Under the pieces are notes generated by a model. That model saw only the letters and a program-made list of their open reading frames with translations. It ran no database searches and was not told the DNA's origin. From Escherichia phage SHIN8: a stretch of 58,460 bases of DNA. The stretch lies in sequence record PP627280.1, one strand, 5' to 3'. The position numbers and the translations under genes were made by a program. Shown piece by piece: positions 42,456 through 56,179 of the stretch; within the stretch, counting starts at the first letter, position 1; every line of letters starts with the position of its first letter.

Positions 42456-42977
42456 TTAACCATTGTTGGAAAATTCACCGTGCAAAATTGCACGCATTTC
42501 CTTCAGCCATTGTGTCGCTTTATTTTTACCTTCATCATTAAATGGGAAATACCTATAATAGTTTTTACCATTCAGCCGAATCTGCGCTAACCAACTATTG
42601 CTGCTTTTAGATTTGTTATGTGTAAGACCTTTAACCCCGCTTGAATTGTTACTATATTTAAATCTATTATGTGCGTTCTGACTAGAATCGCAAGCCCTCA
42701 AATTGTATTGAGCATTATTCAGTTTATTGCAGTCATCATGATCAATTTCTTCAGGTTCTTCATCATAGAGCATTTTCCAGATTATACGGTGGACAAAATA
42801 TGAAATGCCATCAATCTTTGTTCTAAGATGACCAGTTGTATGAACCCATCCAACGCAAGATCCCTTTGGAGCTCTGTTGCTTCTATGAATCTTCCATGTT
42901 AATGCACCCGTCGACGGATCATAGTCAAACAGCTCCAGAAGCTGCTCTTGTGTAAGGTGTATAGGCTTCGCTTTCAT
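42456..42977 (-). CDS. HNH homing endonuclease with AP2-like DNA-binding domain
   Basis: 173 aa; HRIIW...DHDDCNKLNN HNH_3-type motif; AT-rich. Confidence 0.65.
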   Translation of the reverse strand: MKAKPIHLTQEQLLELFDYDPSTGALTWKIHRSNRAPKGSCVGWVHTTGHLRTKIDGISYFVHRIIWKMLYDEEPEEIDHDDCNKLNNAQYNLRACDSSQNAHNRFKYSNNSSGVKGLTHNKSKSSNSWLAQIRLNGKNYYRYFPFNDEGKNKATQWLKEMRAILHGEFSNNG

Positions 42978-43820: not shown

Positions 43821-43852
43821 CAAAAAAGCCCAGGCATAAGGATTCCTGGGCT
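43821..43852 (-). terminator. intrinsic terminator
   Basis: AGCCCAGG-10 nt loop-CCTGGGCT followed by TTTTTTG on minus strand. Confidence 0.55.
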
Positions 43853-43958
43853 CTCTTGATTGTCGGATAGCTTACTTTGACTGCCGTCTTCGTCTATCCT
43901 GGCCTACTTGTACAGCCTCGCCAAAGGCTGGTGACGGTTTGGTACATCTGGCGCCGTC

Positions 43959-44095
43959 GCGTTAAACATCGTTCACATCGTTCAGTAAGTTGCGGGTTTA
44001 CCCTGTCCGCTCCAGGAAGCCCAGCGAAAGTAGTTGCTGTAAGGAGGTACAGCTACCGCTTTCAAGGGCTTGAGTTAAGCATCGTTCACTAAGTT
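43959..44095. repeat. direct repeats of CATCGTTCA(C/G)(TAAGTT) in a ~300-bp non-coding region
   Basis: copies at 43967-43976, 43977-43991 and 44080-44095. Confidence 0.7.
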
Positions 44096-44164
44096 AATGT
44101 TGTTAAATTGTTAAACCTCGTTAACTGTGGTTATCTTAAAGGATGCAGTCTTGAATGGCAAGCT

Positions 44165-44482
44165 TCAATTTTGCGCGGTCCCCTTTGCCGCTTTTGGTGC
44201 TAAAGTACCATCATTTAACATCAACTCAAAACCTGTTACTTGATCGGTTGGAACAATAGGGTAATTCATGATAGCCATGTGGATACAACACCCTCCATCA
44301 CATTCGTCGATGTATTCACTACCCCAATAGTATAAATGACCATCTCTTCGAATATCCATTGCTGTAGGGAAATCTACAAGAATTCTTTTGATTTCTTTTC
44401 GTCCTTCTTTATGCAGATTAGTTTCAATACGGATAAGCTCCGCATAAATTGCTTCACAGATAGTATTTACAATTCCCATCAT
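44165..44482 (-). CDS. hypothetical protein
   Basis: 105-aa ORF with CDGGCC cluster. Confidence 0.4.
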   Translation of the reverse strand: MMGIVNTICEAIYAELIRIETNLHKEGRKEIKRILVDFPTAMDIRRDGHLYYWGSEYIDECDGGCCIHMAIMNYPIVPTDQVTGFELMLNDGTLAPKAAKGTAQN

Positions 44483-44689
44483 TTACCCCCTTAAGTTTTG
44501 AATCATTCTATCACAGGCAGCTTTTACAGAAGAGTTCTGCCAGTCTTCTTCAATTTGTGAAGGTTCTTCAGGCGAATAAGCAGCACTAATCAAGCACTGA
44601 TTATAACCTTCAATATAAGCTTGCTTTGCGGTATCGACTATTGCTCGTAAAGCGATATTGAATAATTGTTGATCCATTTTACACCTCAC
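44483..44689 (-). CDS. hypothetical protein
   Basis: 68 aa; GTG start overlapping stop of upstream micro-ORF. Confidence 0.4.
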   Translation of the reverse strand: MRCKMDQQLFNIALRAIVDTAKQAYIEGYNQCLISAAYSPEEPSQIEEDWQNSSVKAACDRMIQNLRG

Positions 44690-44760
44690 AGAATGTACAT
44701 AAACCAGAAATAACCAGCTACGAAAATAGCACCCGCAAATAATTTTAAAAGCTCGAACAT
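44686..44760 (-). CDS. 24-aa hydrophobic micro-protein (MFELLKLFAGAIFVAGYFWFMYIL)
   Basis: ATG with strong GGAGGG RBS; stop overlaps next start (GTGA); candidate promoter upstream. Confidence 0.35.
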   Translation of the reverse strand: MFELLKLFAGAIFVAGYFWFMYIL

Positions 44761-44787
44761 TGTTCCCTCCGTTAACTTTATGCTGTA

Positions 44788-44815
44788 AGTATAGCAGGAC
44801 TTACGATGTATGCAA
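44788..44815 (-). promoter_or_regulatory. candidate sigma70-type promoter (TTGCAT-16-TATACT)
   Basis: hexamers on minus strand ~30 nt upstream of the micro-ORF. Confidence 0.3.
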
Positions 44816-44918
44816 CAACTTTAGACTTGAAATACATCTATAAAATAGCACGATTTGCCTTTACCTCTGATCCGTCTAGCTGTACTATTAACACATAAAC
44901 AGAGCGGAGGATTACAAA

Positions 44919-45143
44919 ATGGTCATGCTGAATAAAGTATATAGCACAATGGGCGCGGATTATAAAGTTGTACGTCACCCGCGTACTGGTAAATTTGAAG
45001 CGTATATCCGTCCAATGGGTGAAAGTTGGATGTATTACGGTACTTATGATGACGCTGAGCAAGCTTATAAAGAAGCGGAAAGTGCGGCGGAAGCATCCGA
45101 AATTATGGCAAGGTACGACGTCGATGATTACTACCTTAACTAA
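44919..45143 (+). CDS. hypothetical acidic protein, lone plus-strand gene inside minus-strand block
   Basis: 74 aa; GGAGGA RBS; followed by terminator. Confidence 0.45.
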   Translation: MVMLNKVYSTMGADYKVVRHPRTGKFEAYIRPMGESWMYYGTYDDAEQAYKEAESAAEASEIMARYDVDDYYLN

Positions 45144-45147
45144 CAAT

Positions 45148-45172
45148 AAAGGGCCATTTGGCCCTTTATTTA
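45148..45172. terminator. bidirectional intrinsic terminator
   Basis: AAAGGGCC-attt-GGCCCTTT with T-rich flanks. Confidence 0.5.
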
Positions 45173-47512
45173 TTCCTCTTCTCCTAAGTTTGCCATAATA
45201 CCTTCAACATCTTGCGTAATGCGCCAAGCGGCCCCAGTAAATCCCAGTTTGATAGTTTCCTCCCGTGTTACCGGAACAAGAGCACCCATAGCAACCATCT
45301 CTTTGATCGTAGACTCAATTGCTGCGGACAATCCGTGGTGATAGTTTTTAAACGCGGACTTACTTGCAAGACGAGTAGTAATATCACCCCGCGTGATAAT
45401 ACCTTCTTTACGCAGATCTACACGTTTAACTTTCACCCAATCTTTAGTTAGATAATTGACACAAACTTGGCACATAGTACGGATACGAGCTTCGTCATTA
45501 GTACCGATACCCCCACTATGCCATTCCTTCATAATGATATCCTGTCCATGACGCACAAAGTCTAAGGCCCATTGTACATGATAGGTCTGCACAACCGGAT
45601 TGATCCAGTTTTCTCCCACAGCTAACAGGGCGGATAGACGTAATACCTTCAGGTGCGCACGGTTCCACGGCTGACGGATCGCTTCGTCTTTGGTTGCGTT
45701 AATATTACGGTCACATTCATCGTTAAACTGATCACATAATGCTTCCGCTTCTGGACTAAACTGCACTTCAATACTTTGATGCTTTGCCATTGCGACTAAG
45801 GTGTGGTTAACAAGATGGCACACCATATCCCGCAAATGCTGATCCATTGTAGTCTGCTGGTTCTTGTTTAAAGGTGGTCGATCCCCTTCATAGCGGACAA
45901 CATGGAAACGGGATAAGAATCCATCCTCCATCATTTCACGGGTTAAAGCTTCAAAAAACGTGTCCGGTGTCGTTTCGCCCATGATGCTATAGGCCACACC
46001 TTGTTGAGCTTCCGTATTATTAGCCTTATCAGAATAAGACATACCACCAACAATAGACATCTGACCGGACTTTTGATAAACATCGGTAAGGTCATTCTTG
46101 AAGCTTTGCATCGGTGAACCTGCTGGCGCCGTTGCCATTGCTTTGATAATCTTACCAAACTCACCGTTCAAGTTGATAAAAGATTGTTTGTCTGCAAAAG
46201 ATTTACGCAGTGCGGAGCCGGAAGCGCATCGGTCAAAAGATACAAAGCTATGAATCTGCGGAAACGGTTCCTGAAGCTGGCTAACTATATTAGATAGGCC
46301 GCTGTTCAACGTTTCTTTACCAACACCTGAACGAGCAATAAGGACGAAATATCCATTAAGACCAGATTGCGGAATCTGCCAAACCTTCCCGCATACGCCA
46401 GCCATAAATCCTAGTGCTGTCACAATAGAAATTTCTTTCACTGGTCGGACAGATGCTTTGTAGATGTACTTCGCAAGCTCCCCAGCAAGTCCCGGCGGCC
46501 AGTCAATGGCGGTTGCATCAATAGATGTACTTTCTGCAACTACTGTCTGCCCCTGTGTTGTTTCAACAGTTACGGGCATTTCCGCTACCTGCTGCATTGC
46601 ACTGTGTGCCGCTTGCATACGGGCAGCATAATCCCGCGCCAGCGCCGCTACGTTTTCCTGGGCAATGCGCTCACGCTCCATGCGACCGCGACACATACGC
46701 AAGCAACGGTCAATATGAACATTGTTCTTATTAGCCTTCTCACGTTTGCCCAGTGCACTGTAACGGAACAGACGACGACATTGCTCATTACTTTCCGTGT
46801 AAAATGCATACATAGAAATAAGGGCAAGATCTGCTTCAGACTGGGAAGGGAAACCCATTTCAACCCATTCACCATTGAATAACCGCGCATACTTATCGCC
46901 GTTATCTGCTTCAAGTGCGCGCTGATGAATAGTTGCATCATCTTCTACCGGATCTTTTTCTACCAGTTCAATTTCATATGTCTTGCGCTGAAGATCAATT
47001 TCATTCACAAGCATAGTAAGGTAATGATCACGTTCTGCGACTGGTTTGTTGTAGACGGGATTACCCGTGCAGATAATAAAACGCTCCTGACTATAAACCT
47101 CGACACCATCACGTCGACGACCTTTACCGATGTTACCTCTTAACCACAGGTGGACACCCAAGCCTGAGCGACTCACTTCGGTGTAAGTGTCGAACGCAGT
47201 CATGATCTGTTCGAAGCGGCGCAACTGCTCCGGCGTCGTGTGCTTCTTGGGATCAGGTTCATTGGTTGCGTTCTTCACATCCAGGTCGATGCAGGTGAAC
47301 GGGTCTTGTGCAGTAAGCACAAAGCCAATATAAGGTTTATTGAAATGAGCGGCGCAACCTTTAGCAGCTTCAAACGTCATAAGCATATCCGGATCGGTAA
47401 CGTCCGCCGCCATCAAACGTCCAATATCGCTATCCCATACCAACGGCTTTTTATCCGCATCGGCGACCGCCCATTGTGGGAAAGCTTTAATTTCAGCGGG
47501 AAACAGTTCCAT
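45170..47512 (-). CDS. DNA primase/helicase (primase-polymerase-like N-domain plus P-loop NTPase)
   Basis: 780 aa; Walker A ARSGVGKETL in C-terminal half; acidic catalytic-like CIDLDV...GLGVHLWL N-domain. Confidence 0.65.
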   Translation of the reverse strand: MELFPAEIKAFPQWAVADADKKPLVWDSDIGRLMAADVTDPDMLMTFEAAKGCAAHFNKPYIGFVLTAQDPFTCIDLDVKNATNEPDPKKHTTPEQLRRFEQIMTAFDTYTEVSRSGLGVHLWLRGNIGKGRRRDGVEVYSQERFIICTGNPVYNKPVAERDHYLTMLVNEIDLQRKTYEIELVEKDPVEDDATIHQRALEADNGDKYARLFNGEWVEMGFPSQSEADLALISMYAFYTESNEQCRRLFRYSALGKREKANKNNVHIDRCLRMCRGRMERERIAQENVAALARDYAARMQAAHSAMQQVAEMPVTVETTQGQTVVAESTSIDATAIDWPPGLAGELAKYIYKASVRPVKEISIVTALGFMAGVCGKVWQIPQSGLNGYFVLIARSGVGKETLNSGLSNIVSQLQEPFPQIHSFVSFDRCASGSALRKSFADKQSFINLNGEFGKIIKAMATAPAGSPMQSFKNDLTDVYQKSGQMSIVGGMSYSDKANNTEAQQGVAYSIMGETTPDTFFEALTREMMEDGFLSRFHVVRYEGDRPPLNKNQQTTMDQHLRDMVCHLVNHTLVAMAKHQSIEVQFSPEAEALCDQFNDECDRNINATKDEAIRQPWNRAHLKVLRLSALLAVGENWINPVVQTYHVQWALDFVRHGQDIIMKEWHSGGIGTNDEARIRTMCQVCVNYLTKDWVKVKRVDLRKEGIITRGDITTRLASKSAFKNYHHGLSAAIESTIKEMVAMGALVPVTREETIKLGFTGAAWRITQDVEGIMANLGEEE

Positions 47513-50708: not shown

Positions 50709-51046
50709 GATGCAACCCTTTTTATGTGGTTAAGCAGTATTTCTTTGTTGAAGTAATAATAGCCTTGCATCGTGATATTGAATAGGCCAAAAGTGCTATT
50801 TTAGATCACTATTACATCTACAGCTTTGCAGTAACGCTACGCTAAAAATGCAAAGTCTTACGTTTGCAAAGAAAGTGGATTTTATGTACATCACTCTTAG
50901 TACGTATAACGTCTATTATGTTAAATAGCTAAGTTATTGATTTATGGTAAATCTTGTATCAATTCGGACGTTATAGGAGTCTAACGTATTGATTTATAAG
51001 GGTGTAAAATTTTGCTGTTTGTAGCGCATAAAAAGGAACAAACCGG

Positions 51047-52851: not shown

Positions 52852-53148
52852 ATGCTGTATTTAGGGATGGACGAAACTGGACACGCGATTCCTTCCGTTA
52901 ACAAGGAGACGCAAGTATTTACCGACTATTACGGGTCTGCTGTCCCTGTTGAGCCCTGGGCTAACTTTATCGCTGTAGATGCAGACGGTAAAGTTCATTG
53001 TTATGACGCCAAACCTTCTTGCTATGAATCTGGTAAGCAATGGATGCTTGGCGTATACGGATTACATGTGCGCTACTGCGGTGAAGTTGACATTGAAGGT
53101 GTGGACTGGCGCGATACGTTGAAGGAGATTAAAGATGTCCGCGGCTGA
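52852..53148 (+). CDS. hypothetical protein (paralogue of 52268-52510)
   Basis: 98 aa; VPVEPWANFIAVDADGKVHCYDAKP. Confidence 0.4.
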   Translation: MLYLGMDETGHAIPSVNKETQVFTDYYGSAVPVEPWANFIAVDADGKVHCYDAKPSCYESGKQWMLGVYGLHVRYCGEVDIEGVDWRDTLKEIKDVRG

Positions 53149-53221
53149 AGTTACGACATTTATAATAGCTTTTGCTGTTGCTTTATTCCTTATAGCTAAG
53201 TTAGATTTAATGATGGGATAG
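53135..53221 (+). CDS. 28-aa hydrophobic micro-protein, not in ORF track
   Basis: ATG with GGAG RBS; MSAAEVTTFIIAFAVALFLIAKLDLMMG. Confidence 0.3.
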   Translation: MSAAEVTTFIIAFAVALFLIAKLDLMMG

Positions 53222-53224
53222 TTT

Positions 53225-53449
53225 ATGCGCTTACTCATGGTGTTAGGCGTTATACTTGCCGCTTTCGTTGTATTTGCAATTGTAGACTCTAAAGAAATGG
53301 AGCGGCAAAACTGCCAACGTACTGGTAACAGCCGTGAGGATATCATTTGGCAATATATTTACGATGCAAAAGGTAATGTTATGTCAATGTATCCTCAGGT
53401 TATTACTGAGTATGAATATAAATGCAATGACCGTAACAGGTGGAGATAA
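53225..53449 (+). CDS. small membrane-anchored protein
   Basis: 74 aa, N-terminal hydrophobic helix. Confidence 0.4.
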   Translation: MRLLMVLGVILAAFVVFAIVDSKEMERQNCQRTGNSREDIIWQYIYDAKGNVMSMYPQVITEYEYKCNDRNRWR

Positions 53450-55500: not shown

Positions 55501-55534
55501 ATTGTGTACCCATCGAATAAGAGGGGTACACAAT
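55501..55534 (+). promoter_or_regulatory. perfect 11-bp hairpin occluding RBS/start codon of downstream membrane-protein gene
   Basis: ATTGTGTACCC-12 nt-GGGTACACAAT; 3' arm includes the first two bases of the ATG at 55533. Confidence 0.4.
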
Positions 55535-55718
55535 GACCAAACTATACGCCGGATTGTTTTTATTTGCGACGTTGATGTTCGCTGGGCTTTATACCTATAC
55601 AGTAGTCGAACAACCTTCCACGGTTATCCGAATCTTTGCAAGTACAGGGCTTTGCATCTGTCTTATTCTATTTGTTTTATGCATTGTTATTATCCAAGAC
55701 CAAAGGAAAGTTAAATGA
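55533..55718 (+). CDS. small two-helix membrane protein
   Basis: 61 aa, two hydrophobic segments. Confidence 0.45.
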   Translation: MTKLYAGLFLFATLMFAGLYTYTVVEQPSTVIRIFASTGLCICLILFVLCIVIIQDQRKVK

Positions 55719-56179
55719 CCACAATTGCGTTTGATGGAAAAGTATTAGCTGCGGACCGTGGAGTTATGCGCGGGGAAGCTGTGACTGCTTATAAGAAAGT
55801 TCATAGCGTGAATGGACATCGTGGACGGTTTTTACTGGGCTTGTGCGGTTTGACGGCATTTACCGATCAGGTGTTGCGTTATTTTAATAGCGCGGAACCT
55901 GTTAAGTTCCCTGATATTAAACTTTACAGTAAAGATGATGATTACGGGCAAACTTGCGGTCTTGCTGTCACTCCGGAAGGTACTTGCCATTTTATTTATA
56001 ATGATGGTACTTTGAGTGAGCCCATGCTGGATGGATGGGGATCTGAGGGTAGCGGTTGTGTGTTTGCTGCTGGTGCATTAGCTGCTGGTGCAAGTGCGAG
56101 CGAAGCTATTGAGCTGGCAATTAAACACACCACATGTGCATTCCTGGGAGTTGATACAATATCGTTTGAGGGTTTTTAA
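55715..56179 (+). CDS. HslV-like Ntn-hydrolase (proteasome beta-subunit-like peptidase, putative)
   Basis: 154 aa; N-terminal MTTIAF (Thr after Met), KKV, GLCGLTAFTDQVLRYF and GSEGSG segments parallel HslV. Confidence 0.5.
   Translation: MTTIAFDGKVLAADRGVMRGEAVTAYKKVHSVNGHRGRFLLGLCGLTAFTDQVLRYFNSAEPVKFPDIKLYSKDDDYGQTCGLAVTPEGTCHFIYNDGTLSEPMLDGWGSEGSGCVFAAGALAAGASASEAIELAIKHTTCAFLGVDTISFEGF

Follow-up and report, generated by a model that had tools for sequence, protein, structure and literature searches.

Escherichia phage SHIN8 (sequence record PP627280.1; the whole stretch of 58,460 nucleotides (nt) is here called the window) is a Seuratvirus (Queuovirinae). On its minus strand it carries an open reading frame (ORF) of 24 codons plus TGA, the micro-ORF, which starts with the ATG at 44760-44758 and stops with the TGA at 44688-44686. 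Comparison with related phages leads us to conclude that the micro-ORF is a genuine protein-coding gene, the translation of which is supported by purifying selection, a Shine-Dalgarno (SD) sequence and a fixed length. Its product, MFELLKLFAGAIFVAGYFWFMYIL, is most likely a single-helix peptide, predicted to be transmembrane. The explanation that covers the whole of the data best, with a probability of roughly 0.55, is a translated one-helix membrane peptide, encoded by the first cistron of an operon that the host RNA polymerase would read, and acting through a specific helix-helix contact. The existence of this gene, its conservation, the selection at the protein level, the helix character of the product, the anatomy of the operon and the autonomy from the downstream gene can all be read from the compared sequences.

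An initial annotation, made from the SHIN8 sequence alone, had described a hydrophobic micro-protein at this site. Its coordinates and peptide sequence are correct, the strand being minus, and the idea of a real micro-gene for a single hydrophobic helix is borne out by purifying selection, one open frame and a length fixed at 24 codons. The near-consensus SD to which it had pointed, GGAGGG, is indeed located 4 nt from the ATG (44770-44765), and there is no alternative in-frame start upstream. Counting ATG-initiated ORFs of 15-40 amino acids (aa) with a grand average of hydropathy (GRAVY) of at least 1.2 and an SD match of at least 5 nt, we found two in the window, the micro-ORF and another one at 53135-53221, compared to a mean of 0.35 in block shuffles. 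By itself an ORF of 24 codons is trivial, and we take the comparative conservation as the decisive evidence.

Conservation and selection at the protein level

The 1.1-kb region around the micro-ORF is 95-99% identical to WildeMaa/Bas23, SeppeHuegi, CAjan, Seurat and about 30 other coliphages. By tblastn, the micro-ORF was found intact and with exactly 24 codons in 37 out of 37 matching phage records, which comprise 33 E. coli-type Seuratviruses, two diverged Seuratviruses and two Felixounaviruses; of the records that have a Seuratvirus-level primase, 35 of 35 contain the micro-ORF. Altogether 16 distinct DNA versions exist. The diverged ones are MFEFVKIFASVIFIALYFWLMYWV in Salmonella phage STP-SP5 and MSAFVNIFGGSIFVAVYFWVMYFL in Hafnia phage yong3. 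Pattern scans of IMG/VR and of metagenomes yielded a fourth lineage, MYEFVKIFAGVIFVAVYFWFMYFL, on the metagenome contig OIYP01011397.1 (L057), as well as further close copies.

Among the 13 DNA versions of the E. coli group, the variable columns are distributed over the three codon positions as 3/2/14 (14 of 19 are third positions); out of 15 variable codons, 12 show nothing but synonymous changes. Pairwise ratios of non-synonymous to synonymous substitution rates (dN/dS) range from 0.03 to 0.5, with dS often saturated. The diverged homologues differ at 18-24 out of 69 aligned DNA sites without any loss of frame, length, start, stop or SD. Each homologue has an SD (for instance, AAGGAG in STP-SP5 and AGAGGT in yong3). 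The stop codon itself varies between TGA, TAG and TAA, and the last two residues between IL, WV and FL. Furthermore, the frame of the micro-ORF is the only one which is open in every lineage, including STP-SP5, yong3 and L057. An ORF of 123 aa in another frame, annotated in SeppeHuegi and KS_A8, is interrupted by stops in these last three and was rejected as an over-extended form of the downstream gene.

At the RNA level, the leader together with the ORF does not fold more stably than shuffled sequences (z = +0.86), with weak pairing of the SD. An Rfam search gave no match with E<=1 over the micro-ORF; the sole match between 44000 and 45300 was a sub-threshold STnc350 hit at 45141-45203, outside the micro-ORF, and nothing in the whole window reached the gathering score. 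There was no tRNA match either. The substitution pattern, the sole open frame and the lack of an RNA-fold or Rfam signal together indicate that this sequence owes its conservation to a peptide produced from it.

A predicted transmembrane helix

The peptide is hydrophobic throughout, with a GRAVY of 1.66 for the window version, of 1.66-1.77 over all versions, and of 1.64-2.00 in the best 19-residue window. At most one acidic (E3) and one basic residue (K6) occur, both near the N-terminus; K6 is the sole charge in residues 4-24, and in yong3 the peptide has none at all. Hence, the chain contains an uninterrupted hydrophobic stretch of the length that spans a bilayer (about 18-20 residues). Amino-acid replacements are confined to swaps among L/I/V/F and among A/G/S.

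Ten of the 24 positions are invariant across lineages with saturated synonymous sites. Five of them, F8, I12, A15, W19 and Y22, follow each other with the 4-3-4-3 spacing expected for one face of a helix. Further invariant residues are F13, Y17, F18 and M21, and the string YFW.MY, in part imposed by our search pattern, is kept throughout. The aromatic residues Y17, W19 and Y22 would lie near one membrane interface. Proteins shorter than about 45-50 aa insert into the membrane post-translationally (review PMC12648545). A chain of 24 residues is too short to exit the ribosome tunnel before its release, so the insertion would be post-translational here, too.

Promoter and control region

The initial annotation had listed a candidate promoter, TTGCAT-16-TATACT, and these hexamers are present upstream of the micro-ORF (Table 1). 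They match the consensus at 8 of 12 positions (3 of 6 in the -35 element), which is below the threshold of the consensus scanner, and hence were not listed by it. However, each of the five diverged lineages has a -35/-10 pair separated by 16 nt, the end of which lies 26-28 nt 5' of the ATG. Hexamers closer to the consensus are TGGACT-16-TATAAT in STP-SP5 (10/12), TTGCCA-16-TATAAT in yong3 (11/12) and TTGCCT-16-TATACT in L057 (9/12), and the spacer sequences differ while the position is kept. Because of this conserved position in diverged lineages we consider the promoter candidate credible.

Farther upstream is a conserved box (Table 1), the core of which is invariant in an alignment of the window, the Felixounavirus copy, the IMG/VR contig, STP-SP5 and yong3. 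It is possibly an operator or a second promoter element. A relative matching at 13 of 16 positions, GCCAAAAGTGCTATTT, was found at 50786-50801 (plus strand), in the other large divergent intergenic region, and an intermediate form, GGCCAAAAGTGCGAT, occurs at the micro-ORF locus in the L057 lineage. Two or more matches to the box were obtained in 21 out of 100 shuffles, so the copy at 50786-50801 may be due to chance. The box copies at both divergent regions may represent a shared operator.

Operon structure and cassette exchange

The predicted transcription unit has a length of about 1 kb and consists of the micro-ORF, a gene for 64 aa, a gene for 105 aa, about 300 nt without an ORF and an intrinsic terminator (Table 1). 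The latter had been overlooked by a pattern scanner, its loop being 10 nt long. In the compared genomes the micro-ORF appears as the fixed first cistron of this unit, and the micro-ORF and the 105-aa gene as its fixed anchors.

Table 1. Location of the micro-ORF and of associated features in the window
Feature	Position	Strand	Remarks
Micro-ORF, predicted single transmembrane helix	44686-44760	-	Intact in 37/37 records; codon-position bias; only frame open throughout
SD of micro-ORF, GGAGGG	44765-44770	-	From the sequence; 4 nt 5' of ATG
Sigma-70-type promoter candidate: -35 TTGCAT 44815-44810, 16-nt spacer, -10 TATACT 44793-44788	44788-44815	-	Exact match
Upstream box GCAAATCGTGCTATTT / GCAAATCGTGCTAT, core GTGCTAT	44843-44858	-	About 95 nt 5' of the micro-ORF ATG
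Divergent gene for 74 aa, 97% identical to DruSM1 ORF65	44919-45143	+	Intergenic control region common to this gene and the micro-ORF
Junction/linker TGAGGTGTAAAATG, 14 nt	44675-44688	-	Micro-ORF stop, SD and ATG of the next gene
Cargo gene, 64 aa, phrog_36709, variable cassette slot	44483-44677	-	ORF and phrog match
Conserved gene for 105 aa, phrog_25787, right-hand anchor of the cassette array	44165-44482	-	
3' region of about 300 nt, predicted to be transcribed, apparently non-coding, three TGAACGATG repeats	43859-44164	-	From the sequence; no Rfam or tRNA match
Strong predicted intrinsic terminator, GCCCAGG...CCTGGGC and U run	43821-43858	-	-21.9 kcal/mol, z = -4.4, 0/200 shuffles as good
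Second micro-ORF MSAAEVTTFIIAFAVALFLIAKLDLMMG, 28 aa, with SD	53135-53221	+	Annotated in phage Seurat as CPT_Seurat76

The stop of the micro-ORF had initially been described as overlapping a GTG start of the next gene. A GTGA overlap is literally present, but this GTG has not been kept as a start codon among the relatives: they begin at the ATG 44677, which is the conserved and annotated start and lies 8 nt past the stop of the micro-ORF. The SD in front of this ATG (GAGGTG) contains the stop codon of the micro-ORF, and this arrangement, with a spacing of 8-9 nt, is conserved in every lineage. Thus, the coupling to the downstream gene which had been proposed is tight with regard to structure, but the partner is not constant, since the gene directly behind the micro-ORF comes from at least eight unrelated families in different phages. 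This variation of the partner makes any coupling a generic one and not that of a functional pair of two genes.

The slot between the micro-ORF and the 105-aa gene is occupied by one to four genes in other phages, again from at least eight unrelated families, among them an HNH-type endonuclease (STP-SP5). The linker TGAGGTRTRARATG occurs once in the window, where 0.06 instances would be expected, and is found again at internal cassette junctions of other Seuratviruses (L005:2331, L006:2061, L013:5755, L051:1157 and 1384). In addition, one and the same cassette (MKYLHYFEMNIG family) is the first in Cronobacter phage CSP1 and the second in STP-SP5. The reuse of the linker and the changed position of a cassette point to an array which is exchanged by recombination, that is, by shuffling at the shared linker.

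The 3' region of the unit is richer in GC and has no convincing ORF; in WildeMaa an ORF of 53 aa is annotated there on the opposite strand. In the Seuratvirus DruSM1 a 'PH_ORF65', which lies in the region of the TGAACGATG repeats, could be deleted (bioRxiv 10.1101/2024.04.14.589459). A non-coding RNA is one possibility for this region, an iteron-type element close to the replication genes another. Neighbouring genes code for a PDDEXK/RusA-like nuclease, an HNH endonuclease, a dUTPase and a primase. For the C-terminal half of the primase/helicase (window 45170-46369, minus strand) two alleles with about 61% protein identity exist (15 records at >=95%, 20 at 60-80%), and these occur among E. coli Seuratviruses that are otherwise about 95% identical.

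The second micro-ORF, which the initial annotation had called similar, does exist and is short and hydrophobic, but its sequence is unrelated to that of the 24-aa peptide. It is conserved in ECP2304, where the C-terminus reads ...LFIW instead, and some Seuratviruses, such as OddieOddie, have lost it by deletion. As tblastn with the 28-aa peptide gave no match even in close relatives which carry the ORF (possibly an effect of the low-complexity filter), blastn was used instead. It is followed by a gene for a protein of 74 aa with an N-terminal hydrophobic helix (53225-53449, phrog_8826).

Transfer into Felixounaviruses

Two Salmonella Felixounaviruses, SWJM-02 (L004 2010-2348) and SPJ41 (L011), carry an insert which consists of the control region with the promoter, the micro-ORF and a cassette of 53 aa. 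It adjoins a homing endonuclease and is located between the genes for DNA polymerase and ligase. The DNA identity is about 93%; all changes within the micro-ORF are synonymous and the peptide is 100% conserved. Only two out of 324 records that match this Felixounavirus region cover the block. A gene for 127 aa (phrog_4301) is inserted divergently at this insert. We conclude from these comparisons that the block of promoter, micro-ORF and cargo is derived from a Seuratvirus and was acquired by transfer. The varied partners, together with a transfer that did not include the 105-aa gene, show that the peptide is independent of any particular downstream gene and of the 105-aa protein.

Distribution and search for relatives

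Judged by its occurrence in the sequence records, the micro-ORF belongs to the core genes of Seuratvirus and is restricted to this genus, apart from the two transfers into Felixounaviruses. In spite of this it remains unannotated in 36 out of 37 records. The single annotated case is CSP1_063 of Cronobacter phage CSP1 (ARW59095.1; UniRef100_A0AB33CJ70, 'uncharacterized protein'), an orthologue of 24 aa, MFEILKLFAGIIFVAGYFWFMYIL, at the same position and without any substantial difference to the product described here. Within a collection of 15 billion proteins CSP1_063 forms a singleton cluster, and it is the sole database entry for the peptide.

Searches of Pfam-A, PHROGs v4 and NCBIfam 20 with three variants, and of PDB sequences, gave no match with E<=10, except for a PHROG at chance level (E 0.78, one variant). 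No copy of the micro-ORF was detected in plasmids (tblastn) or in 5,426 complete E. coli genomes (blastn), and scans with degenerate DNA patterns of one genome per species for 185,579 species gave no bacterial or prophage copy. The remaining matches of the pattern scans in IMG/VR, metagenomes and species genomes lacked the ORF structure and were dismissed as chance. With a hidden Markov model (HMM) built from nine variants, no paralogue was found in the window, and in Craquatrovirus PSTCR4 and Nonagvirus 9g neither an ORF scan nor the HMM revealed a homologue in the syntenic regions close to the primase gene. Small hydrophobic ORFs are common in phages, and finding one more will hardly surprise a specialist. 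As far as these searches tell, the peptide belongs to no described family and constitutes a new family of a known sort of peptide.

The divergent neighbour and published knock-outs

The gene for 74 aa which diverges from the micro-ORF may regulate the intergenic region that the two share. Its product has a weak match to the AP2 domain (E 1.3e-3, below the cutoff), and its DruSM1 counterpart, ORF65, was assigned by HHpred as 'transcriptional regulator SplA' by the authors of that study (bioRxiv 10.1101/2024.04.14.589459). In yong3 an unrelated gene is found in its place.

In the knock-out library of DruSM1, deletion of ORF65 (dORF65) lowers the plating efficiency on hhe (~1e-3) and, weakly, on Druantia I hosts, and dPH_ORF69, the deletion of 'PH_ORF69', has the same phenotypes (bioRxiv 10.1101/2024.04.14.589459). 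According to the published primers, the intergenic stretch deleted in dPH_ORF69 includes the conserved box as well as the -35 hexamer in front of the micro-ORF, but not the -10 element. PH_ORF69 itself, called bas23_0067 in WildeMaa, is an ORF of 30 aa at 44806-44898 (plus strand), the frame of which is broken in the Felixounavirus copy, in STP-SP5 and in yong3; it is probably not a gene. Since PH_ORF69 is not a conserved ORF, the phenotype of its deletion is best regarded as an effect on regulatory DNA. The simplest reading is a loss of ORF65 expression, and a part of the phenotype could come from reduced expression of the micro-ORF operon. From the same work it is known that ORF62-64, i.e., the 105-aa gene and two cassettes, can be deleted with no phenotype listed, that the micro-ORF was neither annotated nor targeted, and that its authors consider that unannotated small proteins may explain knock-outs which could not be complemented (bioRxiv 10.1101/2024.04.14.589459).

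A bolder interpretation, which we judge quite improbable, would make the micro-protein a conserved effector of a Seuratvirus locus for counter-defence and host takeover, acting in the membrane on a membrane-embedded host factor or defence effector, with the cassettes as exchangeable counter-defence genes. If this were true, part of the sensitivity of dPH_ORF69 to Druantia I and hhe would result from the lost promoter of the micro-ORF and not from PH_ORF69.

Proposed mechanism and alternative explanations

We propose that the host RNA polymerase would read the operon of about 1 kb from the conserved sigma-70-type promoter, with the micro-ORF as its first product. The peptide would insert post-translationally into the host inner membrane and may act inside the bilayer by a specific helix-helix contact, made with a membrane protein of the host or by self-association. 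Its role would be in host takeover, exclusion or counter-defence, independent of the cargo gene and outside the lysis cassette. The timing of expression, the membrane insertion and the kind of target are those parts of the model which we infer. The initial annotation had considered membrane-targeted toxins, holin modulators and inhibitors of host membrane proteins; none of these three roles could be demonstrated by computation.

One-helix regulators of bacteria, such as MgtR and AcrZ, bind a larger membrane protein within the bilayer. Like the micro-ORF product, MgtR, AcrZ, KdpF, MgtS and PmrR are shorter than 50 aa, consist of about one helix and are inserted post-translationally (PMC12648545), whereas the peptide studied here is phage-encoded, even shorter and without sequence similarity to them, and we do not claim its membership in this group. 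In Staphylococcus phage PhiNM1 the early gene product Gp11 is a small membrane protein that binds MurG and DivIC; it has 53 aa and two predicted helices (PMC11237401). Our peptide differs from Gp11 by its length of 24 aa, its one helix and its unrelated sequence, and the host of Gp11 is Gram-positive. By analogy to these cases we favour as a working model a small membrane effector made early by the phage, of the kind of PhiNM1 Gp11 or the bacterial one-helix regulators.

Several points weigh against a specific membrane effector. In this window the promoter is weak by consensus. Translation and membrane location are deduced from sequence comparison, and a literature search found no transcriptome, Ribo-seq (ribosome profiling) data set or proteome of a Seuratvirus. 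Part of the residue invariance is imposed by the way the homologues were found: the members from metagenomes and IMG/VR were retrieved by a pattern that required F13, Y17-F18-W19 and M21-Y22, and the STP-SP5 and yong3 versions by BLAST, which likewise requires similarity. No homologue with an annotated function exists in Pfam, PHROGs, NCBIfam, PDB, plasmids or the E. coli and species genomes searched. Finally, the dPH_ORF69 phage forms plaques on DH10B (bioRxiv 10.1101/2024.04.14.589459). As it does so without the -35 hexamer and the box, the phage can probably dispense with full expression of the micro-ORF in the laboratory.

The micro-ORF might instead be a cis-acting leader, in which the translation of 24 codons sets the expression of the cassettes by coupling or by pausing at the stop, the peptide itself being functionless. 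The stop embedded in the next SD, with an ATG 8-9 nt further on in every lineage, fits such a leader, and the interchangeable gene that follows would suit a generic expression platform. TnaC is an arrest peptide of 24 aa. The micro-ORF shares with it the length, the place as first ORF of an operon, an invariant Trp and a stop near downstream signals, a mere resemblance which serves as a lead only. Unlike TnaC, however, the micro-ORF product is hydrophobic throughout, there is no Rho or terminator logic, and the stop codon and the last two residues, behind the invariant YFW.MY, vary, which would also set it apart from the known termination-arrest peptides. Moreover, selection acts on the amino acids and on hydrophobicity over the full length, which simple coupling does not need, and each cassette possesses its own good SD in the linker, even at internal junctions which no micro-ORF precedes. 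An attenuator would have alternative structures or a terminator before the regulated gene; we found a gap of 8-9 nt, no terminator between leader and gene and no significant RNA structure. We consider a pure leader function unlikely.

Improbable, too, is a non-specific membrane toxin of the type I kind, which would dissipate the proton motive force without any partner and thereby cause host shut-off or exclusion. IbsC (19 aa), ShoB (26 aa) and TisB (29 aa) are likewise tiny, very hydrophobic single helices (PMC12648545), and a strong SD and an own promoter in a lytic phage would agree with such a toxin. But the ten invariant positions, including the heptad-like stripe, exceed what bulk hydrophobicity needs, and the helix has none of the internal polar or charged residues of pore-forming peptides of the TisB type. 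In type I systems the toxin is controlled by an antisense RNA or by sequestration of its SD. For the micro-ORF, no promoter-like site was detected on the opposite strand in or beside it and no Rfam match was found, though a novel small RNA might escape such a search, and its strong SD is not sequestered by mRNA structure. It also belongs to a lytic phage instead of an addiction module and has no homology to these toxins. An early collapse of the membrane would, we presume, also be costly for a phage which needs an energised host.

A holin, an antiholin or a modulator of lysis timing has in its favour the single transmembrane helix and the phage origin, and nothing more. The sole annotated lysis gene of phage Seurat is that of the endolysin (55501-55938, plus strand). 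About 12.8 kb separate it from the homologue of the micro-ORF (42716-42787, minus strand), which is encoded on the opposite strand and not in or next to a lysis cassette. The locus is part of a region for replication and nucleotide metabolism and has its own promoter and terminator, and the Felixounaviruses acquired the micro-ORF between the genes for DNA polymerase and ligase. The C-terminus, ...YFWFMYIL, is not a charged tail, as no charge follows K6. A role in lysis is therefore disfavoured and in our view very improbable. An untranslated DNA or RNA element (5' untranslated region, operator or recombination site), suggested by the adjoining conserved control region and by a 3' end that falls into a repeated, recombination-prone linker, is largely refuted by the substitution pattern, i.e., by the third-position bias and the features kept in the diverged homologues, and shows no structure signal.

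Implications

With a membrane peptide acting by a specific contact as the preferred reading, three aspects lift the finding above the ordinary: conservation over a whole genus that coincides with a near-total lack of annotation, the place as the fixed head of a transferable cassette array, and the neighbourhood of published counter-defence phenotypes. A core gene of a phage genus has been missed by standard annotation in all records except one and is absent from PHROGs and Pfam. It adjoins a locus with published counter-defence phenotypes (ORF65 and PH_ORF69 of DruSM1, on hhe and Druantia I hosts), where the published dPH_ORF69 deletion clipped the micro-ORF promoter, and its function is directly testable. 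Promoter, leading micro-gene and linker-joined cassettes form a compact natural expression module, which appears to be mobile into another phage subfamily, as seen in the Felixounaviruses, and which informs both the study of accessory-gene exchange and phage engineering. Should the peptide have a specific target in the membrane, it would be among the shortest phage effectors known.

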